A stretch of 64,000 nt of DNA from a virus, in the IMG/VR virus record IMGVR_UViG_3300045988_115074, positions 173,303 through 237,302 of that record; one strand, 5' to 3'. Under the pieces are notes generated by a model. That model was not told the DNA's origin. It was given only the letters and a program-made list of their open reading frames with translations, and ran no database searches. Both the position numbers and the translations under genes were made by a program. Each line of letters begins with the position of its first letter. The stretch's first letter is position 1. Shown in pieces: positions 12,923-64,000 of this stretch.

Positions 12923-13108
12923 AACGATGGGGATATGTGTAACCTTATTTGTTCATTTACTGAGGAATCTAAAAATGAGATTAAACAGTATAAAAAAGAG
13001 AAAAAAGCTTACCTTGATAGCGACGGCAGGATTCGTTATCCCTTGGGCTTTGACACGATTAACTTTGTTTGCCATAATCTTGGTACTTTTGAGGAAAGTG
13101 TGAAATGA
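12923..13108 (+). CDS. RNA polymerase beta'-like N fragment, exon 2
   Basis: Own translation: NDGDMCNLICSFTEESKNEIKQYKKEKKAYLDSDGRIRYPLGFDTINFVCHNLGTFEESVK*. It aligns residue for residue with E. coli [47 protein letters not shown]. The stop overlaps the next ATG (ATGA). Not in ORF track (no ATG). Confidence 0.7.
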   Translation, partial: NDGDMCNLICSFTEESKNEIKQYKKEKKAYLDSDGRIRYPLGFDTINFVCHNLGTFEESVK

Positions 13109-16100
13109 GAATAAACTACAATAACTTTTATCTTAAATTCGGTAATCGAACTGTAGATAAATTACAAGCTCCTAGGATTTTTAATTTATCTAAATTTATT
13201 TTACCGAAACAAAATGCTTTTCATTACTTTGGTAGTACCAGTGATGATGTAGGGCCGAGTAAAACTAACCCTATGTTTGCGGAAACTGTACAGCGTATTC
13301 CTATTTATTTTTACCAAGACTTAATTACGCGTTTAGGTAACATGAATGTACGTGCGTTTATGCCTTTGGAAGTTATTCGTAAATATATTAAACAAAACCA
13401 TAAGTTTATCCCTTGTTACGATTTAAGTAAAGTAAAACCTAATCCTTTAGTACCTGTTATTTTAAACTACGCTATCTGCGATAAAAGATATAAATACTTA
13501 GGTAATGAAATTCGTATTCCTTATTATAAGAATACGAATATTATTAATACCTTTATTAAAGGGATGAAAGACATTTACGATGCCCATGGTGATTATTATA
13601 ATCAGTTTATTTTCTTAAATGTACCTGATTTAAAAGACTTACCAAAAGTATCTGAGATGAAGATGGCTGCGAATGTTACTACTAACGCATTCTTCACTCG
13701 TTTTAATACATTTGAAAAACTCATTATTTTCGAATTGTGGAAATGGTTGGGTTTAAATCGTAATAAGTCTATCTTTAAAAACATTCCTTTAAAAATTCTA
13801 GATAAGATTAACTTTGTTTTTATTAGTAATAATGTCTTTACTTATTATTCTTTAGGTCAATTAGACAGATGGCGTAAATCTGATGAAAATAAATCAGGTA
13901 AACTAGATCCGACTAATATGTCTAAAAACTTTGTTAAAATGCTTATTCAATTAAACAAAGCTTCTATAGATTCTAGTTTGATTGAATTAACTGAAGAAGA
14001 AGTAGTAGAACAAGAAGCTAAAGAGACTGAAGACTTTAAAGGTTCTGATGACGAATCTAATAAAGATAAACAAAGTAAATCATTTACAGATACTAAGGTA
14101 AATGAAAAACCAGTAGATGTAGACGATGTAGATGATACAACTGATGGTACTGATGAATCTGATGTAGAAGAGAATGAAGAAGATAATCTGGATATTAGTG
14201 AAAACATTATCACAGATGATTCTGCTGACTTGACTGTTCAAAAAGATTTAGATATCATTGGCGATATTATCGACGACGAGGATGATACTGACTATTCAGA
14301 ATCTCTTGAATCTAAAGAACAAGAGAAGAAAAGTAATATTAATATTAGCCGAGTAGTCTCTATACCTACTGAGCAAGAAGAGGAATTTAACGATAAGATT
14401 GATACTAATTTAGATGTGTCTGATATCTTAAATGTATCTAAATTACCTATTGAAGAAATTCCTGTCTTAGTAACTAAACCTAAAGAGACAAAAACAGCTG
14501 AAGAGAAAGCCAAAGCTGCTTTAGATTATATTGCCAAAAACCAAAACATGACAGTATCTAAATACGATGGTATTCGTAAATCTATTGGTAAGTATCGTAA
14601 TTTGAAATTAACCAATGACAGTAAAATGACCGTCGGTGAAATGGTTAATACTAAACCTGAAGAATTAGAAATTTCAAATGAAGATAAAGAAGTTTCTACT
14701 TTAAATGTAATGGGTAAGCGCTACATTGAGAAACACTTGGAACGAGATGTAGCAGCAATGATGGTAGGTATTCAAGGTGGTGGTGCGATTGTACACGATA
14801 TACGTAAGCAAACTCATGAAAACATCATGGGTGGTTACGATGTATACTCCATGAAGATTAAACCCATCGAAGGTGAGCAATCTACCATTCGTGTTAAACT
14901 ACCTAGAGTAAACAGCGATGGTAAGTTTAAGGTCAGCGGAGTCGATTACGTACTTAGAAATCAAAGACGAGATCTTCCCATTCGTAAAATTAACGATAGT
15001 ACTGTGGCATTGACTTCTTACTTTGGTAAAACATTTGCTAAACGTGATACTACTCGTCAGTTTAATTACGAGAAATGGTTAATTGGACAAATACGCGCTA
15101 TAGCATTTAATCCAGAATTAGATTCAGTAAAAGAAACACGCAGTGGTGATGTATTTGATAATAATGTAAAAGCTCCAGATATTTACTCTTTATTATCCAT
15201 GCACTTTAGGGCAGTAACCACAAAAGACGCTTTTATCTATTTTGATTATCACAAAGCCAATGAACGTTTTGGTAATGACTTAGTTAGAAGTGTAGAATCT
15301 AAAGGATTATTCTTTGCTGGTAGTTATAAAGGTAAATTTGGCTTAGGTGTTAATGAAGACGGTATTTTCTATTCTGTTATTGGTAATGAAGTAACGGAAC
15401 TAGGTGATATCGAATCCATGTGTGGTATTGATTCATCTAAAGCACCTGTAGAATCAGTAACTATTGATATCATGGGTAAGCCTTTGCCAATTGGTTTAGT
15501 ATTGGGTTATAAACTTGGTCTAACTAAACTGATTGCTGCTTTAAAACCAAAATACTATAAAACAGTCAAAACAGGTACACGTGTTAAATTAGAAAGTCAT
15601 GAATACATGATTAAGTTTTCTGATTTCTCTTTAGTATTATCTCGTAAAGACAGAATGGCTTCATTAATCTTATCTGGTTTAAGTAAGTGTGATACCAGTG
15701 ATACTGCAATAACCCTATTAGATAGAAAAGAAATCTATTTTAATCTATTAGAGTCTATTAAAATTCCAGGACGATATGTTAAAGAAATTGATTTATACAA
15801 CAACATGTTTGTAGACCCGATTACTGAACGTATCTTGATTGAAATGAATGAGCCTACTGATTTTACTGGTTTATTAATTCGTTCTGTTGAATTGTTATTA
15901 ACTCGCTATCATGCTGATGAAGTAGACATGACTGGTCAACGTATTGCCGGTTATGAAAGAATGGCTGGTGAAGTATATAAAGCTATTGTTAATTCATTGC
16001 GTGAGCATAATCGTCATGGTATTAAAGCAAACTATCCAATTGAACTTAACCCTGAAGCAGTATGGATGTCTATCTTAAAAGATACATCTAAACAGACTGT

Positions 16101-16413
16101 AGAGAACTTAAATCCAATTCAAGATTTAAAACAACAAGAAGTAACGACATTTAGTGGTAATGGTGGTCGTGGTAAGAAAAGTATGGTTAAACGTACACGT
16201 ATTCACCACAAGACTTCTATAGGTGTTATTTCAGAAGCTACTGTCGATAGTAGTGATGCTGGTGTAACCACTTATATGTCTGCTAATCCTAAGTTTAAAT
16301 CATTATACGGTTTACCTGAAAATTCTGGTACCGAAGAAGTGAATAAGGATTTAAAACCTGAAAACGTATTCTCTACAGCAATGATGATGTATCCATGCTC
16401 TGATACAGACGAT
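13105..16413 (+). CDS. RNA polymerase beta-like subunit, exon 1
   Basis: ORF track; TFSGNGGRGKKSMVKRTRIHHKTSIGVISEATVDSSDAGV resembles beta [40 protein letters not shown]; ends ..YPCSDTDD (compare FLEHDD|ANRALMG). Confidence 0.85.
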
Positions 16414-16796
16414 TGATTAAATATAAAGATTGGGTCGTCTCTAAACCGTTTGAATTGCGGGGACCTCTCGCTAAGTACTTTGTACCAACCCAGGGTAGCG
16501 ATATACTTGGGGGCAGCTCTAATCAAGCTGATACGGTAAAAAGCAAAGTAATAGAGAAAATCCGCAGCCAAGATTCTGCTTTTGTATATAGTAGAATAAG
16601 GTTCAACGACTATCGAAAGCACGCTTGTTAGTAAATTAGGATTAACAAGTGGAAGTGAGTAGAGTAGGGGGTCTGCACAACGTAGACTCTCCCAAGCTGA
16701 CGGGCCGTAGGTCTAACCAACCTGCGGTATGATATAGTCTACTTAAGAAACGATTAAGCATGAAATACTTTCATATGCGTAATTCGTTCATATGTG
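16414..16796 (+). mobile_element. ORF-less group I intron in beta gene
   Basis: Follows exon U (GAT|); ends ..ATATGTG|; contains the R element GGTTCAACGACTATCGAAAG and the S element GATATAGTCTAC. Removing it restores DTDD-PKRSVFLGTQINHS (compare EHDDANRALMGANMQRQ) in frame. Confidence 0.8.
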
Positions 16797-17708
16797 CCCA
16801 AACGTAGCGTTTTTCTAGGGACTCAGATTAATCACAGCCTATCTACCTCTAATGGTCAGGTAATGCCTCTGCGTACTGGCTATGATGAAAAACTAGTAGA
16901 GCGTTGTAGTGATATGTACGCTTCTACTGCTGAACAAGATGGTGTCGTCACTGATGTTAATGATTTCGGTATTACTGTTACTTATAGAGACGGTAGTACG
17001 AAACAAGTAGAAATCGGTAGACGTTATGGTTCTAGTGGTGGTTTCAATACTGCTCACGATATTACTACTCATTTGAAGAAAGGTGATAAAGTTAAGAAAG
17101 GTGACGCGATAGCGTATAACTCTGACTTCTTTACATCTGACCCAATGAAGCCTGGTAAATTAGCAATGAAAACTGGTGTATTAGGTAAAGTGGCATTGAT
17201 TGAGCATCCATATACTTTTGAAGACTCTACCGCTATTACTCGTAAGTTTGGTGAAAATACCCGTGTAAAAACTGTAGTGAAAAAAGAAGTAGTAGTAAAC
17301 TTTGACCAAAGTATCCATAGACTGGCTAAACCTGGTACTGTAGTTAAGATTGATGACCCATTATGTTATATTGAAGATAGTATTACTCACGATGGTAGTC
17401 TATTTGATGAAAACAGTATTGACTTGTTAAGAAACTTAAGTAAGTCAGCTCCTAAAAGTAGCATTAATGGTGTTATTGATAAAGTAGAAGTATTCTATAA
17501 TGGTGATAAAGAAGATATGTCTGAATCACTAATGAAGATTGCTAATGCTTCTGATAATAAATTGGTTGCTCTACAAAAAGCTTTAGGTAAAAAACCATAT
17601 ACTGGTGAAGTAGATGACACCTATCGCGTAGATGGTAATCCATTACTTGTAGATACTGCTGTAATTGTATTTACTATCAGCAGTAACCAAGGTATTAGTG
17701 TCGGCGAT
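16797..17708 (+). CDS. RNA polymerase beta-like subunit, exon 2
   Basis: PKRSVFLGTQINHS..; VALIEHPYTFEDSTAITRKF resembles [32 protein letters not shown] resembles VSGTVIDVQVF; ends ..ISVGD. Length 912 nt keeps the frame. Confidence 0.85.
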
Positions 17709-18078
17709 AAATGTTAACTTTAATAAAGTGAGTTAACTTGTCCTTCTAGGTAGTAATACCTAGTCGAATGTCCTCTAATTGCTGGAAGTCCCTTAGAGTC
17801 TATTTAACCACAACGTAATTAGAAATAATAAGCGTGAGGGTTTGAGAATAAATAGAATTGGGTAATCAGCAGCTAAGCAGCTAAGTGTTTATTGTTTAAT
17901 TAACATAAGCTGAAAGTTCAACGACTAACCGCTTGCCACGGTGTACATTCAAGTGAATGAAAACGGGGACTTCCCTATAACTGGTAGTTATTGTTATAGG
18001 GAAAAGATATAGTCTTGTCTTACATGAAAGTGTAAGCAGTGTGTAATACACACGGGTAAGAGCTAACGACTCTTATTG
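17709..18078 (+). mobile_element. ORF-less group I intron in beta gene
   Basis: GAT|AAATG 5' junction; ends ..CTTATTG|; R element AGTTCAACGACTAACCGC and S element AAGATATAGTCTTG. Splicing gives VGD-KMSKLVYGCQLKATV (compare [14 protein letters not shown]). Confidence 0.8.
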
Positions 18079-25970: not shown

Positions 25971-27935
25971 CTAGTTCCCGAGTGACTGATAAATCCGACC
26001 GGTCAGAATAAAAAAAAGCATCACCGGATTGATTGGAACAATAGAGTTACTGAGTTCATGTGTTTCCTCTGTTTCATTTGCTACAGGGACACCATAAACA
26101 ATCTTGGTTTGCTGGTTAATAAACTCAATTACTGCTTCACGGAATTTCTTAATCAAATTAATGTCATTTGCAGAAATGTCAATGAAGTCCATAATGTCTT
26201 TATGGCTAGTAATAGTCGTAACGATGGATTTATCTGGCTCACCATAATCGTTAGTAATAATAATTGATTTAATCAAATGACTATACTCACGCATTGATGT
26301 AGCTGTAATCTTACGAGCTAGATATTCAGAACGAACATTTTCATCTGGAACCATAGCCAATGTTTCATTAATGGCTTCACGCAGATATACATCCCATGCT
26401 GTACCATGTTCAACGTAATTATCTACATTGGTAGGTGCAAAAGTAATCTCTACTTTCTTAGTTACAGGATGGCCATTCTGAACAACAGAACGTTCACTAA
26501 TGATTCGTTTGAATTCTTCTACTTCTTCTTTAGATTTCCAATCTCGTTTATAAGATTCAATCTCTTCTACTGAATGCATAATGTTGTCAGCATTGCCAAG
26601 ATGTTGTTTTTGGCGAATAGACAATTTAGAATTCAGAGGGAATGAAATATCGTTAAGATTGATGGTACCAATTACAGACTCAGTACGGCCTTCTTTACCC
26701 AATACCAGTCGGCTATAAGTATAACCATCTGGATACTTAGTACATGCTAATGCCCATGCAATAGTAGGAATATCCATTGGGTCAATCAGAGTACGAAGTA
26801 ATTCTGGAGTATAGTTTTTCACATTGATTCGTTCAATTTTCTTAATAAACAAATCAACCAATTTATTACCAATAAACCAAGTAGCTGTACCGTAGTTAGA
26901 GCCACCAATAGAACGACCTAGATTAATCTTAGAGGTATCGATTGATGTTTGCAAATCTACTAACTCATGTACCAATGGTGCGGAGATTACTGCTACTAAA
27001 CCTGAGTGTGGTAATACTACTTCGAAGAATGTAGACAAACCTAATGAGTCCATAATCGCAGCACGTGCGCGAATACCAGTAACATTACCAGTTTCCAAAC
27101 GCATCATGGAACGATGTGAAGCTACTTTCTTTTCAGAACCTTCACGAGTATATGCTGTAGAGATTTCTACATCTTTATCGTTAAGCGTTTTGTTTACAAA
27201 CTCTTCTTCACCAGAAATCAGTTCCATACCAGTAGTGAGCTGGTAAAGTTTAGTAGAACCAAAATCACCTTCTACTGAGTGTGGATTTTCTGTAACATAT
27301 CGTAGAATATTTTCTCGAGAATCTGGTGGGATAGAGATAGAATCATTAAATTTCTCTAAATCTTCACGTTTCTTAAAGTCCACTACTTTTTCATCACCAT
27401 TAGCTAAGCTACGATTAGCGATAGCTGTAGGAATTGGTTTAGAAGCAGGTTTCTTTTCTTCATTCAGTGAGCTACTAGGTACCCAGTGTTTAACACCTGA
27501 TTTATCAATCGCACCTACACGTGATTGAACATTGTGAAGAATCTTAGCAGCAGATTGTTTTTTATCTTCTGTTGGTTTTGGTTCTTCTTTAGGTGCTTCA
27601 AAATCAATCTTAGCAATTTCTGGTGTATCTGCTTTCAATGATTCAAACAAAGAAGGATCCATAATTCGTGATTCTTCAACTACAGTTTCTTTTTTCGGTT
27701 GGTTCTCTGACAACTCACCATTTTGAATCATTTCTTCAATAGTCATTGAATCGACATGTTCAGTACTATCGTCACGATGAGCATATTCAGCAAGATTACC
27801 TACTTTATCAATGTCAATTGTATCGTGCATTGAATCAACATTTTCAGTATTACTACGTTGTGCGTGTTCAGTAGTATTACCTACTTTTTCAATATCGATA
27901 GTATCGTGTAATTTAACTTCGTTTTGGTCGCTCAT
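25971..27935 (-). CDS. hypothetical protein (654 aa) with an N-terminal tandem 28-aa repeat
   Basis: ORF track; its ATG directly abuts the stop of the upstream gene (TAAATG). Confidence 0.75.
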   Translation of the reverse strand: MSDQNEVKLHDTIDIEKVGNTTEHAQRSNTENVDSMHDTIDIDKVGNLAEYAHRDDSTEHVDSMTIEEMIQNGELSENQPKKETVVEESRIMDPSLFESLKADTPEIAKIDFEAPKEEPKPTEDKKQSAAKILHNVQSRVGAIDKSGVKHWVPSSSLNEEKKPASKPIPTAIANRSLANGDEKVVDFKKREDLEKFNDSISIPPDSRENILRYVTENPHSVEGDFGSTKLYQLTTGMELISGEEEFVNKTLNDKDVEISTAYTREGSEKKVASHRSMMRLETGNVTGIRARAAIMDSLGLSTFFEVVLPHSGLVAVISAPLVHELVDLQTSIDTSKINLGRSIGGSNYGTATWFIGNKLVDLFIKKIERINVKNYTPELLRTLIDPMDIPTIAWALACTKYPDGYTYSRLVLGKEGRTESVIGTINLNDISFPLNSKLSIRQKQHLGNADNIMHSVEEIESYKRDWKSKEEVEEFKRIISERSVVQNGHPVTKKVEITFAPTNVDNYVEHGTAWDVYLREAINETLAMVPDENVRSEYLARKITATSMREYSHLIKSIIITNDYGEPDKSIVTTITSHKDIMDFIDISANDINLIKKFREAVIEFINQQTKIVYGVPVANETEETHELSNSIVPINPVMLFFILTGRIYQSLGN

Positions 27936-28712
27936 TTAGTTTCCTTCTTTAACAGGTGCTGGATTAGCAGCATTTAAATTAGGGTTTGTATATTTATACA
28001 ATTCTTCAGAGATAAATTTCTTAATATCTTCTGGAGCTTCTTCTGGGTGTTGGTGGTAATAGTTAATTACCATGGTAGTATAGAAGTCGCTAATGTGTTG
28101 TACTTCAGACAACAATGTATTACGAATACGGTTTGCACACACTACATAGCGTAGTTTGATATCTGTAATCAATTCCAAGAAGTAAGCATCTTCTTGATCT
28201 ACTTCTTTCTTAACAGTATTGTCTGCATTCAAGTATTTAGAATAAAGCTTACGAATAGAGTTAAGCTCACGTTCCATGTCAGACATGTCAGATATGGTCA
28301 TATTCGCCAATAGCTTGAATTTATCACGCTCTGGAAGGTAAGGTAACATCTTTTCCTTATCCTCTGCGCCAAAGGCCTCTAGGGCGCGTTTAGGGGCAAG
28401 GATTTGCTCATTCAGATGCTTATGGATTTCCACACAAGATTCAAATGTGGTATCTACCAAAGTAGAGTATTCTTCTTGAGTCATCATGCCTTTTAAATCT
28501 TCAGGCATTTTGCGAACACGTTCAATTGGTTTTAATTCACCATCACGTGCTTTAACATAAGGTTTCTTAGGGTTAAGCAATAATACTTTTTCACGGAAGT
28601 GTTTATCATTTGTTTTCAAACGCAAACGACCACTACTATATTTATCACCATTAAATGTAGTTTTGATTTGTTGGCCATTTTTTAAATTGAAAGGGAGGAT
28701 TACATCAGTCAT
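27936..28712 (-). CDS. hypothetical protein (258 aa)
   Basis: ORF track; ATAAGGAAATCAAAAATG box. Confidence 0.75.
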   Translation of the reverse strand: MTDVILPFNLKNGQQIKTTFNGDKYSSGRLRLKTNDKHFREKVLLLNPKKPYVKARDGELKPIERVRKMPEDLKGMMTQEEYSTLVDTTFESCVEIHKHLNEQILAPKRALEAFGAEDKEKMLPYLPERDKFKLLANMTISDMSDMERELNSIRKLYSKYLNADNTVKKEVDQEDAYFLELITDIKLRYVVCANRIRNTLLSEVQHISDFYTTMVINYYHQHPEEAPEDIKKFISEELYKYTNPNLNAANPAPVKEGN

Positions 28713-28858
28713 TTTTGATTTCCTTATTTAAATGAATCTAGTAAATCGATTAATGTATATTTATTAACATTCTTCGATTTATGTTATGAATTTAAAGATT
28801 ATCACATATGTAGCTAGTCTTTAACTATTTACTAACTTTATTATAAGGTAGATTTATA

Positions 28859-29698
28859 ATGGGTAATTTAATGTTAAATTACATTACCAGTACATGGGAA
28901 AAAGAAGATGTTGCCCTATATACTGATATAATGGAACTCGTAACAGGTGTACGAGATGATTATGGTGATAACATAGATTATATCATCCAAAACTGTAATG
29001 ACGATGTTACAATGAGTCAGTTAGATGACTTAATCAAAAGCTCTGTTCAAGGAATGTTAATTGAACTATTAGGAGAAATTGGTTTCTTTGTTTCTGATGA
29101 TTATTATTTAGATAACGAGATACTGTATAAGATTTATAAAGAAGCTATCTATATTGAAGCCAATGAGCAATTAGATTTCTCACTCTCTATTTTAGAGTCA
29201 GATAGAGATATTATTGTTACATTCTACGAATTACTAAATGTTGTTGGTTCTTTAGATATTGATGAATCAGACTTCAATAACCATATTGTTAAAATATTAC
29301 CAATGACTAAAGAGAAATTAGTTAACTATTTGCGTTCTAAAAAAGAAACTCAACCAGAAGAGCCTAAAGACTTAACTAAGATAGCTTTGCGTGTTAAAGA
29401 GTTTTGTAAAGCTGTTAACGATGAATCGTTTATGGTTATTGATTTAATTAGAAATGGTGTTAACTTAGGTTTACCATTTCGTAGTTATTTAAATATCTAT
29501 TCTACTGCTCTATTTGATTTAGATTTAAAAGAACAGTGTTATAACTTATACTTATTCGCACTGATTAGTGAAGATGGTACAGACGAGCCTGCTGAATGTG
29601 TAGAAGATAATATCGGCGATTATGTATTTGATTTCGGTGTTGTTGATTCTATCTTAAGAGCAGTACGTGAAATTCAAGTAAAAACAAGGACTATTTAA
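28859..29698 (+). CDS. hypothetical acidic protein (279 aa)
   Basis: ORF track; ends 2 nt before the beta' C fragment gene. Confidence 0.7.
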   Translation: MGNLMLNYITSTWEKEDVALYTDIMELVTGVRDDYGDNIDYIIQNCNDDVTMSQLDDLIKSSVQGMLIELLGEIGFFVSDDYYLDNEILYKIYKEAIYIEANEQLDFSLSILESDRDIIVTFYELLNVVGSLDIDESDFNNHIVKILPMTKEKLVNYLRSKKETQPEEPKDLTKIALRVKEFCKAVNDESFMVIDLIRNGVNLGLPFRSYLNIYSTALFDLDLKEQCYNLYLFALISEDGTDEPAECVEDNIGDYVFDFGVVDSILRAVREIQVKTRTI

Positions 29699-29700
29699 AA

Positions 29701-30999
29701 ATGAAAGAAATGAATAAATATAGTTATTTCATCATGGGTTTGAAAAACAGATGGTTCTTAGATTCATATTGGATTAAAAGCTGTTTCTCTGTATTTAAAA
29801 CCAAAGATACCACACCTTATTTGGTTAAGACAAATAGTAATGGTTTTTACTTTATACAAGATGGTGAAGAAGTACTGATTACAGGTACTAAAGATATCAC
29901 TAAACCATTACTTAGAGTAGGTGAAATGATTACTGTACCAATGGGTACGTTCCCTGGTCAAAAAGAAGAGATTAAGACTTCTTGTGGTGTTCTATTTCAA
30001 AACTACTTAATGGTTATTGACCCATTTAATGGTAAAGTACCCTTTATTAATAAACGTTTCTTCCCTAGTGATGTAGAGAAGTATTTCTTACACAAATGGG
30101 AGCGTTCACGTGATGATATTAGTGAAGATAAACCAGAAAAACCAGATGAAGTATTTACTGAAGAGTTTTTAAAATATACAGAAAATACTCTACACTTAGT
30201 AAACTATACTCAAACCTTTGTTCCTTCTATTACCGAGAGGTCTTTAACGACTAATCCGCTATTAGAGAAACGTAGAAAAGAACTCTATGCTGAATATGGT
30301 GATAGATTAAACGACCCTGTTATTGCTGCTAAGGTAGATGCTGAATTAGTAGCTATCGATAAGGAATTCATGAAAGGTGATGATTCCATGGGTTTCTTAA
30401 TCAGTGGTAAAGCATTTAACAATACTCGTAAACGTTTGAATAATAACTTTGGTACACCATCTACTCTGGACGATAAACCAGGTCAATTCATTACACGTAG
30501 TTTAAAAGAAGGTGTGGATTATAAGAATCTATCTGTCTATGTAAATGACGCGTATAATGGTTCTATTGGTCGTGGTCTAGAAACACAAGAAGGTGGTGTA
30601 TTGGTTAAAGACGCATTGCGTTCTGCTGCTAACTTAAAAGTAGAAGGTGATGACTGTGGTAGTACACATGGTGTATTATATAAGATGCCAGATGATGTAG
30701 ATAAGTGTCTTAAATATATTGGTTACTGGTATATTGTTAAAGGTACTTCCCACAAGATTACTAATGAGAATATTAAAGACTTAGCAGGTAAATACTTATT
30801 GTTTAGAGCACCTAGTATGTGTACTTCTAAGAATAATAGTTACTGTAGAAAATGTGTAGGTCCTAATATTTCAAATTATGAAAATGGTATTGCTACAGTT
30901 AACTCTAGCTTAGGTAGTGTCATTATGGGTCTATCCATGGCCGTAATGCACAATAAAACCGTATCCACCAATAGGTGGAGGAATTCTTTATTATCTTAA
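29701..30999 (+). CDS. RNA polymerase beta'-like subunit, C-terminal fragment (bridge helix to trigger loop)
   Basis: [60 protein letters not shown] aligns with [82 protein letters not shown] aligns with GVCAHCYGRD..GTQLTMRTFH. Confidence 0.85.
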   Translation: [432 protein letters not shown]

Positions 31000-31069
31000 T
31001 GTATTTTAGAATAGCTTTAGAACATACCCGTATATGAAATATTTATTAGTTTAAGAAGGATAACTAGAA

Positions 31070-32131
31070 ATGAATAAAGTAATATACGGCATTACTGCAA
31101 ATACTAAAGTATTAACGACAGATGGTTTTAAGGAGGTAATTAACTTATCTAAAGATGATATTATTATATCAGAAAACAGTGTAGATGCTACTGTATTGGA
31201 TATCCAACAGGAAGGTTATAATAACACACATTATGTTATTCTAGAAGATGGTAGAGGTGTTGAATTAGGTGATAACTATCAGTTAGATTACATAATTGCC
31301 AAGTCTAGAATCAAACTACGCACTAGTCCAATATCTTCTATCAATATTCCTGATAATACTTTTATCAAGTTAAAGTTAATTGATAGTCCTTATAGAACCA
31401 CTGTGAATGATACTGACTTAATTCCACCTTACACAATGGGCGTATTACTAGGTAATGGCTATTGTAACAATTATAACTTAGAATTAAGTTCTCCTTACGA
31501 TGAGTTATTTGAAAAAGTAAGTAATGAATTAACCGATGATAATCTAAGAGTATCTATGGTTAAAGAGTTACAAGGTACTAAGAGAGCTTTAATTGTAAGG
31601 AAAAAAGAGTATAACCATAATCATGATATTAAGAACAGTTATCGAGAGAAGTATTTGTCGTATGGATTAGGTGGTTTACTAGCTAATAGTAAGTTTATTC
31701 CTGATGAATACCTTTATAAGATTAACTTAAAACAAAGAATAGAATTAATTAGAGGACTATTAGATACAGATGGTAATGTCTCTCCTTCTAAGAGTATTAG
31801 ATTTAATACTGTAAGCCATAGGTTAGCTAAAGGGTTACAATATCTAGTTTGGTCTATTGGTGGTAGATGTGCCACGAGGAAAGAGATTATGGCACCACAC
31901 AGAGTAACACATCAAGACGTATATTGGGTATATATTAACTATGTCGATTTTATTAAGTTATTTACTGTAGGTAAGAAATTGAATAGATTGAAAGATAGAA
32001 GATATTTACCTAATAAAGATAAATGGATTAAAGTATCTTCTATTGAGAAATCAAATAGAGAAGTACTTACTTATAGTATTACTTTAGATAAAGATGTTAG
32101 GTTAATTACTGATACGTATATAGGAATTTAA
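31070..32131 (+). CDS. free-standing LAGLIDADG homing endonuclease with intein-like (Hint) flanks
   Basis: Two LAGLIDADG motifs (MGVLLGNGYC, LIRGLLDTDGNV); N-terminus GITANTKVLTTDGFKEVINL and NNTHYVILEDG look like intein blocks A and B; C-terminus VLTYSITLDKDVRLITDTYIGI looks like blocks F and G but lacks the terminal HN; own SD and ATG. Confidence 0.8.
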   Translation: MNKVIYGITANTKVLTTDGFKEVINLSKDDIIISENSVDATVLDIQQEGYNNTHYVILEDGRGVELGDNYQLDYIIAKSRIKLRTSPISSINIPDNTFIKLKLIDSPYRTTVNDTDLIPPYTMGVLLGNGYCNNYNLELSSPYDELFEKVSNELTDDNLRVSMVKELQGTKRALIVRKKEYNHNHDIKNSYREKYLSYGLGGLLANSKFIPDEYLYKINLKQRIELIRGLLDTDGNVSPSKSIRFNTVSHRLAKGLQYLVWSIGGRCATRKEIMAPHRVTHQDVYWVYINYVDFIKLFTVGKKLNRLKDRRYLPNKDKWIKVSSIEKSNREVLTYSITLDKDVRLITDTYIGI

Positions 32132-32133
32132 TA

Positions 32134-32187
32134 ATGCATAATAAGACTGTATCAACTGCACCATGGCGTAAAGACCTATTATCTTAA
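32134..32187 (+). pseudogene. displaced original 3' end of the beta' C-fragment gene
   Basis: ATGCATAATAAGACTGTATCAACT...TAA encodes [17 protein letters not shown], a synonymously diverged copy of the [17 protein letters not shown] at 30946-30999; followed by a terminator. Confidence 0.7.
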
Positions 32188-32198
32188 AATCTATTTGT

Positions 32199-32228
32199 AT
32201 TAGAGTGTGTCGCAAGATGCACTCTAAT
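32199..32228 (+). terminator. hairpin plus T-rich run after the relic 3' end
   Basis: ATTAGAGTG-N12-CACTCTAAT then ATATTTTATTTT. Confidence 0.6.
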
Positions 32229-32317
32229 ATATTTTATTTTAAACATATACTACTAAACTGAAAGAGAAGAGCCTTCTTCTAATAATTTAATTTATAGTTA
32301 ATTAACGGAGTATTACC

Positions 32318-32581
32318 ATGATTGAATTACTAAAACCAATAGATAACCAAAAAGAATGTGACAACCTTAGGCGACAATTGATAAAAGATATTGTCTCTGA
32401 TTTTGAGTATCGTATCGGATTACAAGATAAGCTATTAAAACAAGCTATTGCATTTCGTGAAGAATGTGTAGCAAAGGGTTTAATTTCTCTTATTCCTGAT
32501 ACCGATAAGAAGATTGATTATCTTCGTGAGGATATCGCGTGGCTTAGTGAGAATGTGATTCAAGGAATTGAATCATTGTAA
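32318..32581 (+). CDS. hypothetical protein (87 aa)
   Basis: ORF track; GGAG SD. Confidence 0.65.
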   Translation: MIELLKPIDNQKECDNLRRQLIKDIVSDFEYRIGLQDKLLKQAIAFREECVAKGLISLIPDTDKKIDYLREDIAWLSENVIQGIESL

Positions 32582-32586
32582 GATAC

Positions 32587-32622
32587 TACTACAGTAGATA
32601 GGGATACCTATCTACTGTAGTA
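32587..32622. terminator. bidirectional hairpin between convergent genes
   Basis: TACTACAGTAGATAGG-GATA-CCTATCTACTGTAGTA. Confidence 0.7.
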
Positions 32623-32623
32623 T

Positions 32624-33049
32624 TTATCCTAATACAATATATAATTTTTTTTCTTTAAATACTTTAGTTAAGTACTCTCTAACCAATCTATTATACTTAA
32701 TTGGATTACTGGACTTATGTGTCGTTTGTCCTTTAACACTAATCCAAGCATTGATTGGGTTATCTGAAATGAAAGTATTTACAGCTTCATCCAATGTTTC
32801 AAATAACACACCACTATTGTTATAGTCTTTAACGTATACAGTAGGTGTATATTTTGGATGAATATTAAAATAGATAAAATCTTTATCTTTAGATAAACAA
32901 TATTTAGTAATGTTTAAATTAGCATGTTTTCTATTTAGCCAATCAACAATTAATTCGTTATCACTAACATTTTCTTGTTGTTCCCATACCCATTCAGGTA
33001 CTTCTAATCTTTCTTTATAGAGAGTTAAACTAGAGAGAGATTGAGTCAT
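32624..33049 (-). CDS. hypothetical protein (141 aa)
   Basis: ORF track; GAGGA SD. Confidence 0.7.
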   Translation of the reverse strand: MTQSLSSLTLYKERLEVPEWVWEQQENVSDNELIVDWLNRKHANLNITKYCLSKDKDFIYFNIHPKYTPTVYVKDYNNSGVLFETLDEAVNTFISDNPINAWISVKGQTTHKSSNPIKYNRLVREYLTKVFKEKKLYIVLG

Positions 33050-33144
33050 TTTAATTCCTCATTGCGTTAAAGACAAGATAAATCAGTGCTAAAACTGCAA
33101 TTAGACTAATAACAATTGTAATTAGCTGTTCTGTTGTAACCATT

Positions 33145-33354
33145 TTATTTTCCCAATAAAAAATAAAAAATATAAATTAATACTAATACCAATAGGAACT
33201 TAATCCCATAGTATACGTCATCACCTACTTTACTTTTAAAAGCAATTCTTTTGTCTTTTAGATATTCTAATGTAGGTGCTACTGTTACTACTACTGTTTC
33301 TATACCAGAATAGAGTTTACGAATAACCTTTTTAAATAGTTTTTTATAATCCAT
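33145..33354 (-). CDS. hypothetical small membrane protein (69 aa)
   Basis: ORF track; C-terminal hydrophobic helix; weak SD. Confidence 0.5.
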   Translation of the reverse strand: MDYKKLFKKVIRKLYSGIETVVVTVAPTLEYLKDKRIAFKSKVGDDVYYGIKFLLVLVLIYIFYFLLGK

Positions 33355-33385
33355 TTTATTTTACCCAGCAAAAAGCATAAGTAAC

Positions 33386-33415
33386 TAGATAGGACACATT
33401 ATAGTGTCCTATCTA
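33386..33415 (-). terminator. hairpin downstream of the tRNA cluster
   Basis: TAGATAGGACAC-N6-GTGTCCTATCTA. Confidence 0.55.
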
Positions 33416-33431
33416 ATATACTCTATTGAAT

Positions 33432-33842
33432 TGGTCCGCGAGGTGGGACTCGAACCCACACGACCTATGGTCGAAAGATTTTCTTACTACTCTTGCTTTC
33501 ACAAGCCTGGTATAGTTATCAGTTGTAGTCTGGACTATATCATTACCTTCAACTTTACTTGCTAAGGTATCCTGAGCGTAGTCTCTGAACCTTCCTCTTA
33601 TCCTACTTAAAGACTTAGAGGCTCGGCTGCTGATTGACCAATTTCCGATATTCTTATAACTTTCGTATTCGTCGTTTCCAACCACACTGTAGTCATCGGA
33701 ACTATAAGGTTATTCCAGCAGTTTCCAGGATTCTCATCTATATATTTCTATATAGCGGCTCTATGTTCATCTAAATATCAGTTAAGATATTAAGACTACT
33801 ATACTAAAGTCTTTTATGTCTACCCAATTCCATCACTCGCGG
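33432..33842 (-). tRNA. tRNA-Leu: tRNA-Leu(UAA) interrupted by a group I intron (exons 33842-33807 and 33482-33432)
   Basis: The joined exons give an 87-nt class II tRNA: acceptor CCGCGAG/CTCGCGG, D arm ATGGAATTGGGTAGACAT, anticodon stem AAAGA/TCTTT, loop CT-TAA-AA, long variable arm CGACCATAGGTCG, T arm GTGGGTTCGAGTCCCAC, encoded CCA. Confidence 0.8.
33483..33806 (-). mobile_element. group I intron in the tRNA-Leu(UAA) anticodon loop (between nt 34 and 35)
   Basis: 324 nt; follows an exon U and ends in G; R element GGTTCAGAGACTACGC and S element ATGATATAGTCCAGAC; the first 15 nt can pair with exon AAGACT (P1). Confidence 0.75.
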
Positions 33843-33965
33843 AAAAATCGGTTTAAACTAGTTTCATCACCGAAAGTTTTTTATCACACTAGTACTTTGC
33901 CTATTCATTACATTTTAAAGCAGCACCGTACGTCAGAATAGGAATTGAGTACGAGTACTTCTATT

Positions 33966-34049
33966 TGGTGGAGGGAGTAGGATTTGAACCTACGAACCTT
34001 TCGGGGCGGATTTACAGTCCGCTGGATTTAACCACTCTCCAATCCCTCC
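33966..34049 (-). tRNA. tRNA-Tyr: tRNA-Tyr(GUA)
   Basis: Folded by hand: acceptor GGAGGGA/TCCCTCC, anticodon arm GCGGA-CTGTAAA-TCCGC, long variable arm, T arm GTAGGTTCAAATCCTAC, CCA. Confidence 0.85.
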
Positions 34050-39938: not shown

Positions 39939-40003
39939 ATACGCTACAGCGTAGGGTTTACCCATTCCTTAATATACGCTCTAGCGTAGGGTATAATTAC
40001 CCC
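39939..40003 (+). promoter_or_regulatory. two tandem copies of ATACGCT-NN-AGCGTAGGGT-N3-7-ACCC upstream of the 40087 gene
   Basis: 39939-39963 and 39974-40003; each holds a TACGC/GCGTA palindrome plus a GGGT/ACCC pair. Confidence 0.5.
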
Positions 40004-40086
40004 TATTATCCATTCTAGCTAAGCTTATGAATGATTACTTTATAGTCGTTCTAATGTACATTTAACCCCTATAAGGAATATTAAAG

Positions 40087-40827
40087 ATGTCTAACCGTCA
40101 AAAACAACGCGGTAATAACCGCAATGGTATGAATCCTGCTAATGCAGAACCTATCCAGCTAGAAGAAGCAGAAGACTTGGAAGTATCTACTGAGGACTCT
40201 CCTTCCATTGAAGAAGGTCGTGAATACACTACCAATGATATTCTTCTACCAGATGCTACTGAGGAAATCCACAATCCTTCTGTAGACTTAGAACAAGAGC
40301 AAGAAGCAGACCGCCTTCGCCATGTAAAAGGTGAACTAGATGTAGATGAAGTACTAGGTTTAGTAAGCCTTACTGCTCGTATGTCTTTACTTGGCATTAT
40401 CGACTATATCGATAAGATGAATTCTTTCAAAGGCGTTATTCGTGTCCTAATGAATGATAAAGGTTTTGTGACTAATCAAGGCCCTATCATGCAAGCAGAA
40501 CTCTTCCGTAACATTATGGACATTATCACTAAGACTTCAGACTTAGATTTCCGCTACTCTATGGACTTACTGATGCAGTTGTTCGTAAAACATGGTAAAG
40601 AAGGTCAACCTCTTAACATCTTCTCTCTCATGCGTTTCCAAGAGAACATTCGTCTTGACTTAGTAGAACAGCAATGTTATCCTAACTTAATGACCATGCT
40701 ATCTGTATTAGCAGACCCTACTACTCGTAGTAGCAAAATCAATAAAGAAATTGATATGGGTCGTGCATTGCAATACGGCTTTAGTGAAATGGCTCGTAAT
40801 CGTCTTTTGGCTTACTTCGGACGCTAA
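40087..40827 (+). CDS. hypothetical protein (246 aa) with an acidic N-terminal third
   Basis: ORF track; AAGGA SD. Confidence 0.75.
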   Translation: MSNRQKQRGNNRNGMNPANAEPIQLEEAEDLEVSTEDSPSIEEGREYTTNDILLPDATEEIHNPSVDLEQEQEADRLRHVKGELDVDEVLGLVSLTARMSLLGIIDYIDKMNSFKGVIRVLMNDKGFVTNQGPIMQAELFRNIMDIITKTSDLDFRYSMDLLMQLFVKHGKEGQPLNIFSLMRFQENIRLDLVEQQCYPNLMTMLSVLADPTTRSSKINKEIDMGRALQYGFSEMARNRLLAYFGR

Positions 40828-43664: not shown

Positions 43665-45074
43665 ATGACTAAAATGACTAACATTGCCCTGGCCGTAATT
43701 GCTGCTGCTGCATCTACTACTGTGTTGGCAGACAATTCAGTAACAGGTACCTACCATGTTACTCAAGGTGATAAAATCACTGTAACTGGTAGTGGTAATA
43801 CCACCGTAGGTACAGACCTGGTAAACAAAGGTCTCTCCAATACCGCATTCGGTATCCATAACACTGTCGAAGGTAAAGACAGTGTAGTAGGTGGCCAACG
43901 TGCACAAGTGAAAGGCGATATGTCTGTTGCCATTGGCCATCACGCACAAGCTCTGGAATCAATGAATACAGCCATTGGTTCCGAAGCTTCTGCTATTGCT
44001 CAATCCTCTACCGCTATTGGTAAAGGTACCCGTACTTTAGGTATTGCCTCTACTGCCGTAGGTGCTCATGCTACTGCTGAACAAAATTCTGATGTAGCCA
44101 TGGGTTTGCACGCTAATGCCAAGGGTGGTCAATCAACCGCTATCGGTCAATCTACTACTGCTGAAGGTGGTCAGTCTACCGCGATTGGTTCAGGTGCTAC
44201 CTCTACTGGTCGTTTTTCTGTGGCTGTAGGCACAAATGCTAAAGCCAATAATGAGCATGATGTAGCTATTGGCTCTTTCTCTACTACAGAGAAAGCCGTA
44301 GGTACTTCTAGCGCCATTATTAATGGTGTAGAATACGGTACATTCAAAGGTCATAAACCTGTAGCTACTGTATCTGTAGGTAAAGAAGGTAGCGAGCGTA
44401 CCATTACCAATGTAGCTGCCGGTCGCGTTTCTGCCGAATCTACTGATGCAATCAATGGTTCTCAACTCTATTCTGTTGCTACTAAAGTAAGTGACAACAC
44501 AGCTTCTGTTGAAATCCTGAAAGAAGCAGTAGCAAGCAATGAAAGCAGTATCGCTGTTAATGCTAACCGCATTACTAGTAACACTCAAGCAATCCAAGGT
44601 ATTAACAACACCATTAACCAACACACTACTTGGAACGAAGCTCAAGATGACCAAATCGCTGAGCTGCGTAAACTCGTGAATGGTTTGCATGGTGACAATG
44701 CCGAAATCCGTAAAGAGCTTCACGATAACCGACGCGAAGCACGTGCAGGTATTGCTGGCGCTAACGCAATCGCTGCTATCCCACAACCTCACGCCCCTGG
44801 TCAAACGGCTATCGGTGTCGGTGCAGGCTACTTCAAAAACGAGGGTGCCGCAGCTGTTGGTGTTTCCCATATTTCTGATTCTGGTAAATGGGTATCTAAA
44901 GCTGGTATCAACGTAGACACTCGCCGTAACATTGGTATTGGTCTTGGCCTCTCTTATGTATTCGGTGGCGTAAAAGTACCTGTACAAACCAAAGAAGTGG
45001 TACATGAAGTAGTGCGTGAAGTGATTGTACGTGAAGTACCAGCACAACCTACTACTAAACGTATTCGTGGTTAA
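43665..45074 (+). CDS. YadA-type trimeric autotransporter adhesin-like protein with signal peptide
   Basis: Signal peptide MTKMTNIALAVIAAAASTTVLA; repeated S.A.G..A.A...S.A.G head motifs; neck ERTITNVAAGRVSAESTDAINGSQLYSV; coiled stalk; anchor GQTAIGVGAGYFKNEGAAAVGVSHISDSGKWVSKAGINVD..IGIGLGLSYVF. Confidence 0.85.
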   Translation: MTKMTNIALAVIAAAASTTVLADNSVTGTYHVTQGDKITVTGSGNTTVGTDLVNKGLSNTAFGIHNTVEGKDSVVGGQRAQVKGDMSVAIGHHAQALESMNTAIGSEASAIAQSSTAIGKGTRTLGIASTAVGAHATAEQNSDVAMGLHANAKGGQSTAIGQSTTAEGGQSTAIGSGATSTGRFSVAVGTNAKANNEHDVAIGSFSTTEKAVGTSSAIINGVEYGTFKGHKPVATVSVGKEGSERTITNVAAGRVSAESTDAINGSQLYSVATKVSDNTASVEILKEAVASNESSIAVNANRITSNTQAIQGINNTINQHTTWNEAQDDQIAELRKLVNGLHGDNAEIRKELHDNRREARAGIAGANAIAAIPQPHAPGQTAIGVGAGYFKNEGAAAVGVSHISDSGKWVSKAGINVDTRRNIGIGLGLSYVFGGVKVPVQTKEVVHEVVREVIVREVPAQPTTKRIRG

Positions 45075-52493: not shown

Positions 52494-53240
52494 ATGAGTG
52501 AACAAGTAAAACATCAATATTCGGTATTTGATAAGACTCTCAACGATGCTACTAAGGAAGCAATGTTCTTAGGCCAACCAGTAAACGTGCAACGTTACGA
52601 CCAATCCAAATATCAAATTTTCAATGATTTGACAGAGAAGCAAAAATCATTCTTCTGGCGTCCCGAAGAAGTAGATGTATCTCGAGATAGAATGGATTTT
52701 GCTAATCTTCCAGAACATGAGAGACATATTTTCTTAAGTAATTTAAAATATCAAATTTTGATGGATTCGGTGCAAGGCCGCGCGCCAGCTATTGCATTTC
52801 TACCAGTCATTTCTATTCCTGAATTAGAACACTGGACAGTATGGTGGACCAGTATAGAAGCTCTGCATTCTTTCTCTTATACCCATATTATCCGAAATGT
52901 GGTTAACGACCCAAGTGAAGTATTTGATGACATCGTAGTCAATGAAGCTATTTTGAAACGAGCTGATGAAATTTCGAAATATTACGATGACTTACTTGAA
53001 CTTCAGAAGTACTACGATCTTTTGGGTGAAGGTGAGTTTGAAATTAAGAATAAGAAAACAGGCGAAGTAAAAGAAATCATCGTTAGTAAAAAAGAACTAA
53101 TGAAGAAAATCTATCTTTGCATGTTCTCTGTAAATGCATTAGAAGCTATTCGTTTTTATATCTCATTTGCCTGCTCATTCGGATTTGCCGAACGAAAACT
53201 CATGGAAGGTAATGCCAAAATCATTAAATTCATTTCCCGT
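52494..53240 (+). CDS. nrdB: ribonucleotide reductase class Ia beta subunit, exon 1
   Basis: Very close to E. coli NrdB ([63 protein letters not shown]); ends ..[10 protein letters not shown] just before the RDEALH iron-ligand motif. Confidence 0.9.
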
Positions 53241-53550
53241 AAACTTCATTGCGGCTTCTACCAGTGATGGTAGTCGAATAACTCTGTTAAACGGGGAAAC
53301 TCTATTATAGACAATCCCGTAGTAAAGACGTTTAAATTATGTAGTTTTATTTAAACTGACAAACTCTAACGACTATCGAAATCCTAATATTTTATTAGAG
53401 AGAGTAGAGTAGTGGACAATTGTTTAGTCCGCCAAACGCAGAGGGTCTATTTTAATAAATAGATCGTGATATAGTCTGACCCCAATAGTGATATTGGGCG
53501 GGTGTCTTAAGCACACCGGCTACGATTAACGACCGTAGTGGACAGCTTCG
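53241..53550 (+). mobile_element. ORF-less group I intron in nrdB
   Basis: 310 nt; follows an exon U (CGT|) and ends ..GCTTCG|; R element CTCTAACGACTATCGAAAT, GAGTAGAGTAGTGGAC, S element GTGATATAGTCTGACC; removing it restores [14 protein letters not shown] in frame. Confidence 0.85.
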
Positions 53551-63769: not shown

Positions 63770-64000
63770 CAAATATCTTCAATACGGGTCGTTAATCCAT
63801 ATTCTGTCTATCTAAGACAGCTCTATGTTACCATAGACGTTGAGACTATATCTTCTTCTCCAGCATTACCTGGTAAGATTCCTAATATAAGGAAACCACA
63901 TAGAGGATTACATTAATCCACTGTGGTAGTCACTCTATTTCCCCAAACTCCGTTACAGAGACCTCACTTGAGTGGTACGTCTTTCGACTAGTCGTTGAAC
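63770..64000 (-). mobile_element. 3' part of a group I intron in nrdA (runs off the window)
   Basis: Minus strand reads GTTCAACGACTAGTCGAAAGACGTACCACTCAAGTGAGG ... GAAGATATAGTCTCAACG ... TGAAGATATTTG|GGAATTCGT; the R and S elements are present, it ends in G, and it shares sequence blocks with the beta' intron. Confidence 0.75.

Follow-up and report, generated by a model that had tools for sequence, protein, structure and literature searches.

In the 64,000-nucleotide (nt) stretch of viral DNA examined here (IMG/VR record IMGVR_UViG_3300045988_115074, positions 173,303 to 237,302; hereafter the window, with coordinates counted from its first letter), the gene for tRNA-Leu(UAA) is interrupted in its anticodon loop by a group I intron of 324 nt. 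The intron lies between U34 and A35, and its features make it very probable that it is an endonuclease-less member of a mobile lineage, with splicing predicted from its sequence. An earlier note, drawn from the letters of the window, had proposed a phage tRNA-Leu(UAA) split at precisely this position by a group I intron of this length, and the proposal held on every test run. The window itself is a fragment of an uncultured jumbo phage with a G+C content of 33%; its open reading frame (ORF) 13105-16416 (1103 aa) is ~33-35% identical to beta subunits of RNA polymerase from phiKZ-like jumbo phages. A crAss-like origin, considered because such phages are intron-rich (PMC7886860), was dropped on account of this match.

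A tRNA-Leu(UAA) gene split between U34 and A35

On the minus strand, positions 33807-33842 and 33432-33482 join to an 87-nt class II tRNA-Leu(UAA). The 5′ exon (33842-33807) reads CCGCGAGTGATGGAATTGGGTAGACATAAAAGACTT, the 3′ exon (33482-33432) reads AAAATCTTTCGACCATAGGTCGTGTGGGTTCGAGTCCCACCTCGCGGACCA, and the ligated-exon junction is predicted as ...AAAGACUU followed by AAAAUCUUU.... ARAGORN, when run with its intron option, returns tRNA-Leu(taa) at c[33432,33842] with an intron of 324 nt, and the coordinates, the 36-nt and 51-nt halves, the intron length and the class II cloverleaf given in the earlier note proved exact; in default mode the program does not call the split gene, and reports nearby only Tyr, Arg-UCU, Leu-UAG and Asn. 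The spliced 87-mer folds in ARAGORN into a cloverleaf with a 7-bp acceptor stem, the anticodon loop CUUAAAA, a long variable arm, the conserved GG of the D loop, the T loop GGTTCGAGTCC, the discriminator A73 and an encoded CCA. The intron, 33483-33806, is preceded by an exon U, and its last nucleotide is the G at 33483. The group I core elements named in the earlier note are in place, GGTTCAGAGACTACG at 33577-33591 and ATGATATAGTCCAG at 33530-33543, and the Infernal search that had been suggested as a check gave a match of the full Rfam model Intron_gpI (RF00028, model positions 1-253) to 33512-33778 on the minus strand, with 68.1 bits (E 3.7e-15) against a gathering score of 50.

Independent support for the boundaries comes from an intronless ortholog. 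When IMG/VR was scanned with the sequence of the T arm and acceptor, seven loci matched, one of which, L451, belongs to a 237-kb viral contig and is collinear with window positions 27808-33980 at 92-95% nucleotide identity. In the orthologous place L451 carries an uninterrupted 87-nt tRNA-Leu(taa) gene, scored at 52 bits by the Rfam tRNA model, whose junction is identical to the one predicted for the window, AAAAGACTT followed by AAAATCTTT (CTT, then AAAA); the sequence around the junction of this intronless allele is AAAAGACTTAAAATCTTT. Since the L451 gene is uninterrupted and its junction identical, the two tRNA halves of the window are parts of one gene, and the insertion amounts to exactly 324 nt. 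An intron-plus allele in the window and an intron-minus allele in L451 thus occupy one site between flanks that are 92-95% identical, and because the site is empty in a near-identical phage, the intron was gained or lost recently, the direction of the event being a matter of inference. The exons compare unequally with those of L451: 6 of the 36 positions of the 5′ exon differ, all of them in the D arm and including a compensatory change from U-A to C-G, and 50 of the 51 positions of the 3′ exon are identical. This asymmetry might represent a co-conversion tract.

Two further observations concern the flanks of the gene. Directly upstream of its tRNA-Leu, L451 has ~157 extra nt (L451 positions 5023-5179), a segment missing at window position 33843; it contains a weak tRNA-like element (22.7 bits with the Rfam tRNA model, below the cut-off) and ends in GGTTCGATTCCAGGTGCGCGTACCA. 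Downstream of the CCA, a hairpin listed in Table 1 may, to judge from its sequence, be a processing or termination signal; it escaped a scan for terminators, as the T stretch follows only 12 nt further downstream.

Fold of the intron and predicted splicing

The intron was compared with its relatives at two depths. A covariance model, R1, was built from 19 short tRNA-Leu introns (10 viral, 9 bacterial), whose consensus fold shows compensatory changes in 30 of 48 pairs. R1 recognizes the window intron with 74.8 bits (E 2.8e-22), and the other introns of the window reach at most 26.8 bits. Its alignment has high posterior probability only for the half of the window intron from P6 to the 3′ exon, homology of the segment from the internal guide sequence (IGS) to P2 being recognized by eye, while the 5′ half was mis-aligned because the P4 sequence differs and P5 is extended. 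The structure was therefore set, in place of the R1 alignment, by an alignment of five sequences of the sub-lineage to which the window intron belongs, running from the guide sequence to the 3′ exon. This alignment yields thirteen helices (P2, P3, P4, P5, P5a, P5b, P5c, P6, P6a, P7, P8, P9.0 and P9), the P3/P7 pseudoknot, and GAAA loops on P5c and P9 (Table 1). In the resulting fold 96.2% of the cells are paired, as against 32-38% when the partners are slid, 29 of the 68 pairs show compensatory changes, and the observed values were reached in none of 500 shuffles. In the window copy itself all 68 structural pairs are standard. P7 is the helix in which group I introns bind guanosine, and it covaries across the wider family (ACU/AGU, AGU/ACU, AUC/GAU, ACC/GGU). 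A pairing of the exon GACU with the P7 3′ strand, which RNAalifold had produced from one alignment (A1), was rejected as an artefact of the P7 pseudoknot, and P1 and P7 were set by hand instead. At the 3′ end, nearly all of the at least 46 viral family members have a G directly before the 3′ exon, usually as GUAGUAAG followed by AAAAUC.

For P1, position homology and a local minimum-energy fold point to the same register. The window guide GAG(CC), intron nt 46-50 (33757-33761), would pair as C32-G48, U33-A47 and U34.G46, the last a wobble at the 5′ splice site, with the intron pairs U1-A45 and A2-U44 extending the helix. In the relatives the guide stands directly 5′ of the P2 GAAA hairpin, as GAGU or GAGC in the main family, as GAGUC in L048 and L427 and as GAGCC in L102; in L336 the guide GAAUCCC gives a canonical P1 of 7 bp. 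The local minimum-energy fold of the window intron forms P1 from CUU and GAG together with the two intron pairs, leaving the 45-nt P1 loop (L1) folded on itself.

With these elements, splicing can be envisaged as follows. The tRNA cluster Asn, Leu-UAG, Arg-UCU, Tyr and Leu-UAA would be transcribed on the minus strand with Leu-UAA as its last member, and the intron RNA would fold into a complete group I ribozyme. Exon C32-U33-U34 and the guide GAG (intron nt 46-48) would form P1 with U34.G46 at the cleavage site, where a free guanosine bound in P7 would attack after U34. P9.0 would then put the terminal G (33483) into the P7 site, so that the exon 3′-OH could attack after this G, with the anticodon stem AAAGA/UCUUU holding the exons together. 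The predicted product is an 87-nt tRNA with encoded CCA, reading UUA (and UUG). Both the catalysis by the intron and its guanosine dependence are inferred here from the sequence.

Several points weigh against so complete a picture. As a result of the misalignment of the 5′ half by R1, homology with the classic tRNA-Leu intron family is clear only for the segments IGS-P2 and P7-P9.0, and the covariation support for the fold rests on five sub-lineage sequences. P1 comprises only three exon base pairs (plus the two intron pairs) and P10 at best one or two A-U pairs; because both are minimal, alignment of the exons must rely on the anticodon stem. Furthermore, L1 contains the sequence AGUCUU, which may offer a competing pairing, either against P1 or against the anticodon stem.

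These points could be taken to mean that the intron has decayed and no longer splices, the tRNA-Leu(UAA) copy being a pseudogene and the phage relying on host tRNA. Minimal P1 and P10 helices and a possible competitor pairing in L1 would fit such a state, as would an endonuclease ORF lost or never present, and the fact that a close relative manages with an intronless gene, hence an evolutionarily labile locus. The integrity of the window copy nevertheless makes decay unlikely: its 68 structural pairs are all intact, nothing is missing of the core elements, the bulged A and the G-C pairs of P7, the U.G pair or the terminal G, the curated Rfam cut-off is exceeded, and the exons are intact and give a spliced tRNA that scores as a normal tRNA-Leu.

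P1 could be drawn in a different manner. The earlier note had paired the exon AAGACU with AGUCUU at intron nt 10-15, in which case the downstream GAG would not be the guide; this arrangement would place a U across from U34 at the splice site, so that a U.G wobble could form only if a nucleotide were bulged, and the guide homologous to that of the relatives is GAG at nt 46-48. The 6-bp Watson-Crick complement is a rare one, since at least 6 nt of complement occurred in only 2.8% of L1 shuffles, and L1 of L102 has an analogous GUCCAC, the complement of its own exon GUGGAC. However, the registers in the window and in L102 lie one nucleotide apart, L048 and L427 have no such complement, a GAG-type guide stands directly 5′ of P2 in all family members (and forms the 7-bp P1 in L336), and the local minimum-energy fold pairs AGUCUU inside L1 while forming CUU/GAG. 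It is thus rather improbable that AGUCUU acts as the guide; on the position of the guide in the relatives and the local fold it was discarded as a strand of the catalytic P1 and left as an unexplained complementarity. Finally, the notion that the two halves are unrelated tRNA fragments flanking an intron-like element, or an element of another gene, to which the silence of default tRNA finders might lend itself, can practically be dismissed, being refuted by the alignment with the collinear L451 contig and its identical junction at 92-95% identity, and by at least 46 independent viral loci and dozens of bacterial loci that are split at the same nucleotide.

Mobility, codon demand and setting of the intron

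The reading preferred here, a group I intron predicted to splice and derived from a mobile lineage, is borne out by the ORF content of the family. The window intron holds no endonuclease ORF, the longest ORF with an ATG start being 29 aa; one frame still reads ...ENPGNCWNNLIVPMTTVWLETTNTKVIRISEIGQSAAEPLSL up to a stop codon and matches the tails of the relatives' ORFs, an ORF-tail remnant. In L048, L102 and L427 the introns carry ORFs of 188-236 aa in L1, and Pfam assigns HNH_3 to both the L048 and the L427 ORF; other HNH ORFs are found in the main-family introns L009 and L022. The HNH ORFs of the relatives start in L1 and run through the IGS, P2, P3, P4 and P5abc into or past P6. Because it lacks an ORF above 29 aa and retains a remnant matching those relatives, the window copy is regarded as an endonuclease-less member of a homing lineage.

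As to function, counts over 34 window ORFs put TTA at 48% of the Leu codons (40.5 per 1000), which agrees with the expectation, voiced at the outset, that UUA is the dominant Leu codon, and the spliced tRNA would therefore serve the main Leu codon of the phage. The further suggestion that splicing gates the decoding of the phage proteome is weakened by the near-identical phage L451 with its intronless gene, and weakened again if the host, as it may, has a tRNA-Leu(UAA) of its own. For the same reason, the intronless near-identical phage, the intron can be argued to be dispensable, and it is most likely a selfish element, predicted to be self-splicing and phenotypically near-neutral. It is conceivable, since the anticodon loop of the precursor is interrupted, but seems improbable that the intron acts on phage translation as a timing gate or as an anti-defence device. 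If it did act as a timing gate, the supply of tRNA-Leu(UAA) would depend on guanosine- and Mg2+-dependent self-splicing in a phage where UUA makes up 48% of the Leu codons; if it were an anti-defence device, it would maintain a precursor pool that host anticodon nucleases cannot recognize; and under either role the AGUCUU in L1 would be a switch competing with P1 or the anticodon stem.

The intron is not alone in the window, where RF00028 has at least four more matches (Table 1). The RNA-polymerase-beta-like ORFs in and around which three of them lie are 13105-16416 and 16794-17717, and ORF 11419-12522 has HNH_3 and NUMOD1 domains. Weak R1 matches also fall into two gaps between ORFs, at 53238-53503 on the plus strand (16 bits, E 0.001) and at 39974-40135 on the plus strand (10 bits, E 0.08), which may be degenerate or divergent group I introns unreported by Rfam. 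Elsewhere, positions 43665-45074 on the plus strand encode a 469-aa ORF with YadA head, stalk and membrane-anchor domains, of the trimeric autotransporter adhesin type.

Table 1. Coordinates of the split tRNA-Leu(UAA) gene, of the structural elements of its intron and of other features of the window
Feature	Position	Strand	Remarks
5′ exon	33807..33842	-	acceptor 5′ strand, D arm, anticodon stem 5′ strand, C32 U33 U34; from ARAGORN and the L451 alignment
Group I intron	33483..33806	-	324 nt; RF00028 68.1 bits, R1 74.8 bits; absent from L451
L1, 45-nt P1-loop insertion	33762..33806	-	folds on itself; contains AGUCUU (33792-33797), complement of exon AAGACU
Internal guide sequence GAG (putative)	33759..33761	-	intron nt 46-48; position homology and local minimum-energy fold
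P2 hairpin	33738..33755	-	CUAUAUA-GAAA-UAUAUAG; 5 of 7 pairs compensatory among the five sub-lineage sequences
P3 5′ strand UCCUG	33726..33730	-	partner 33570-33574; 4 of 5 pairs compensatory
P4-P6 domain	33589..33720	-	P4, P5, P5a/P5b/P5c, P6, P6a
P4	33715-33720 with 33628-33633	-	CUGCUG/CAGCAG; invariant in the sub-lineage
P5a/P5b/P5c extension	33643-33701	-	59 nt; P5c capped by GAAA; 10 pairs compensatory in P5a-c
P7 5′ strand G-(A bulge)-GACUA	33579..33585	-	inside conserved GGUUCAGAGACUACG; partner 33532-33537
P3 3′ strand CAGGA	33570..33574	-	sub-lineage covariation alignment
P8 hairpin	33544..33569	-	3 of 5 pairs compensatory
P7 3′ strand UAGUCC	33532..33537	-	inside AUGAUAUAGUCCAG
P9.0	33525-33529 (ACUAC) with 33486-33490 (GUAGU)	-	encloses a weak hairpin and P9; 3′ domain 33486..33529
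P9	33492-33505	-	CUUGU-GAAA-GCAAG; 3′ domain common to the viral tRNA-Leu intron family
Omega-G	33483	-	terminal G of the intron; 3′ splice site
3′ exon	33432..33482	-	A35 A36, anticodon stem 3′ strand, long variable arm, T arm, acceptor 3′ strand, A73, CCA
Hairpin, 11 bp, perfect	33387..33414	-	AGAUAGGACAC-UAUAAU-GUGUCCUAUCU; 17 nt 3′ of the tRNA CCA; L451 has one too
RF00028 match	12541-12922	+	45.3 bits; in or around RNA-polymerase-beta-like ORFs
RF00028 match	16373-16757	+	50.1 bits; in or around RNA-polymerase-beta-like ORFs
RF00028 match	17720-18036	+	103 bits; in or around RNA-polymerase-beta-like ORFs
RF00028 match	63821-64000	-	33.2 bits; cut off at the window end beside ribonucleotide reductase ORF 62378-63772

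Relatives and comparison with known introns

Two 14-nt patterns from the 3′ domain matched at least about 120 loci each in IMG/VR, and among the matches listed there are at least 46 loci in which ARAGORN with its intron option finds a tRNA-Leu(taa) split between U34 and A35, the introns measuring 192-1087 nt. For other isotypes this option often predicts introns falsely, and where an intron starts with A it places the split wrongly (as 'Ser aga' or 'Phe aaa'); such cases were re-split by pattern. A near-identity search of the locus against GenBank phages gave no close relative, leads coming solely from distant BLAST matches; by this route a 735-kb phage (LR756501) was found to hold a tRNA-Leu(taa) gene interrupted at this site by an intron of 205 nt with the same GUAGUAAG end, un-annotated. 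In the Agrobacterium phage Atu_ph07, cultured on A. tumefaciens C58 (RefSeq NC_042013, 490 kb; about 112890-113251, minus strand; locus L456, 1194-1555), the intron interrupting tRNA-Leu(taa) at this site measures 278 nt; here, too, the tRNA is un-annotated, and a 'hypothetical protein' coding sequence (CDS), FDI40_gp154 (locus 1504-1620), which is probably spurious, lies over the 3′ exon. Closest to the window intron are the ORF-bearing L048, L102 and L427 and the ORF-less L336 (427-kb contig), and L337 (459-kb contig) and L384 also belong to this sub-lineage.

In bacteria, a scan of one genome per species with the core pattern matched at least 120 loci, and about half of the matches listed are tRNA-Leu(UAA) genes split between U34 and A35. 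Among these matches the site is occupied in cyanobacteria, Acidobacteriota, Alpha-, Beta- and Gammaproteobacteria, Bacteroidota, Chloroflexota and Eremiobacterota; the others concern tRNA-Met/Ile(CAU), Arg(CCU) and further isotypes. The earlier note had taken an insertion between nucleotides 34 and 35 as the hallmark of the cyanobacterial and plastid intron, a view that has to be given up, since many other bacterial phyla and at least 46 viral contigs have an intron at this very site, which is therefore not specific to cyanobacteria and plastids.

The site is not entirely fixed, either. In three viral contigs (L050, L105 and L384) the intron lies one nucleotide earlier, between U33 and U34, with a 3′ exon starting TAAAATC and a guide shifted accordingly, GGUC with exon GACU, so that this intron family is found at two neighbouring sites. 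In L259 (Pusillimonas sp.) and further bacterial loci the same core, with a GUAGUAAG-type 3′ end, occurs in other tRNAs, for example tRNA-Ser(UGA) split after U34, Met/Ile(CAU), Arg(CCU) and Thr, isotype calls by ARAGORN being unreliable in these cases.

In this context, earlier descriptions of phage introns are of interest. According to a review of 2014, all phage introns then known resided in genes that code for proteins, even though phages have many tRNA genes (PMC3984707), and a tRNA review of the same year named cyanobacteria, alpha- and beta-proteobacteria and plastids as the only carriers of group I introns in tRNA genes (PMC4033280). Reviews of jumbo phages (PMC7824862, PMC12908238, PMC13282480) make no mention of tRNA introns, and neither does the huge-phage paper. 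No description of a group I intron in a phage tRNA-Leu was found in the full-text literature, the coverage of which leaves out most subscription journals, and within that coverage the impression that the arrangement is undescribed stands. The sole phage tRNA introns encountered there are those of the Lak megaphages, called 'enigmatic' and assigned to Phe, Gly, Thr and Tyr tRNAs (Devoto et al., preprint 10.1101/356790). Like the window intron, they sit in tRNA genes that very large phages encode; the preprint does not class them as group I introns, and tRNA-Leu(UAA) is unmentioned (10.1101/356790).

A group I intron in the tRNA-Leu(UAA) of a jumbo phage corrects the generalization of 2014 that such introns in phages are restricted to protein genes. 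At least 46 viral contigs, published huge-phage genomes and one cultured RefSeq phage contain the same intron, with no annotation in any of them. The interest lies less in the window copy than in the large phages' split tRNA-Leu genes as a whole, which are widespread, go un-annotated and in some cases come with homing endonucleases. Because default tRNA finders miss split genes, and in Atu_ph07 a probably spurious CDS is annotated over one of the exons, phage tRNA repertoires and the codon-usage arguments built on them are incomplete. The finding also bears on the old question of vertical descent of an ancient tRNA-Leu intron as against its lateral spread, as phage copies with HNH ORFs, together with a plus/minus pair of alleles, present a candidate vector.

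The classic intron of cyanobacterial and plastid tRNA-Leu(UAA) (Anabaena), of subgroup IC3, shares with the window intron the host gene, the site between U34 and A35 and the order of the elements. Common to both are a short P1, a guide (U)GAGCC directly 5′ of a P2 with GAAA loop, the P3/P7 pseudoknot, P9.0 closing the 3′ domain, a GAAA-capped P9, and a terminal G followed by AAAAUC; cyanobacterial loci, among them L243, L246, L251 and L278, show this classic layout. In contrast, P4 is CUGCUG/CAGCAG in the window and UCGGUG/ACCGAG in cyanobacteria, P9.0 is ACUAC/GUAGU as against AUUCUC/GAGAAU, and the P5a/b/c extension, the 45-nt L1 insertion and the phage setting set the window intron apart. 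Pairwise identities from P7 to the 3′ splice site (~61% with cyanobacteria, 59% with other bacteria, 67% with the viral main family) are too close to place the intron.

The viral tRNA-Leu(UAA) family, comprising the IMG/VR loci, LR756501, Lak-B and Atu_ph07, has the site in common with the window and a near-identical stretch from the P7 3′ strand to P9.0 and the 3′ end (AGUCCAGACUACAA...GUAGUAAG, then AAAAUC), with a median identity of 67% over the 3′ domain; HNH ORFs are present in many of the family's introns. Most of its members, unlike the window intron, have a compact P5 and a UCGGUG-type P4 and measure 192-230 nt without an ORF; the compact P4-P5 of the 19-sequence main family (UCGGUG-type, no P5abc) is not found in the window intron. 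Prevotella phage Lak-B1 (L002; MK250020 289926-293001, reverse complement) has the same 3′ domain and AAAAUCC 3′ exon as the window family, and the locus gave no Rfam match at E <= 1. Two group-I-like introns seem to interrupt its tRNA-Leu(UAA) gene (at ~750-1650 of the reversed locus), the first in the D loop (GGAATTGGT, then AAAGTG...GAGTTTTTG, then AGACAC) with its own GGTGCAGAGACTATACGG / AAGATATAGTCCAAAC core, and the second between U34 and A35, ending in GCAAGAGTAGTAAG before AAAATCC. The 'enigmatic' Lak tRNA introns of the literature may be of this group-I-like kind.

A different affinity is seen in the P4-P6 domain. The introns of phage protein genes, such as that of Vibrio phage 1.232.O next to the capsid gene (L003) and the one at 17720-18036 of the window, have a P4-P6 domain with P5 extension that is 64-72% identical over ~120 nt, and agree with the window intron in the generic elements of the core (AAUUGCUGGAA, AAUCAGCAGCC, GUUCAGAGACUA and GAUAUAGUCC), HNH ORFs being frequent in them; they differ in interrupting protein genes, in their 3′ domains and in R1 scores of at most 26.8 bits. 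The CUGCUG/CAGCAG P4 and the P5a/b/c extension are common to the window intron, L048, L102, L427, L336 and the phage protein-gene introns. The pattern AATCAGCAGCCGAGCC, tried as a probe for the sub-lineage, was of little use for that purpose, as 126 of its 131 matches were not tRNA-Leu, most being other phage introns, and few new members emerged; the matches are informative on the shared P4-P6 domain. With a P7-P9.0 domain and 3′ end that match the tRNA-Leu family and a P4-P6 domain that resembles phage protein-gene introns, the window sub-lineage may be a recombinant. While the kind of element itself has long been known in bacteria and chloroplasts, what is new here is a representative that is phage-borne, extended in P5 and devoid of an ORF.

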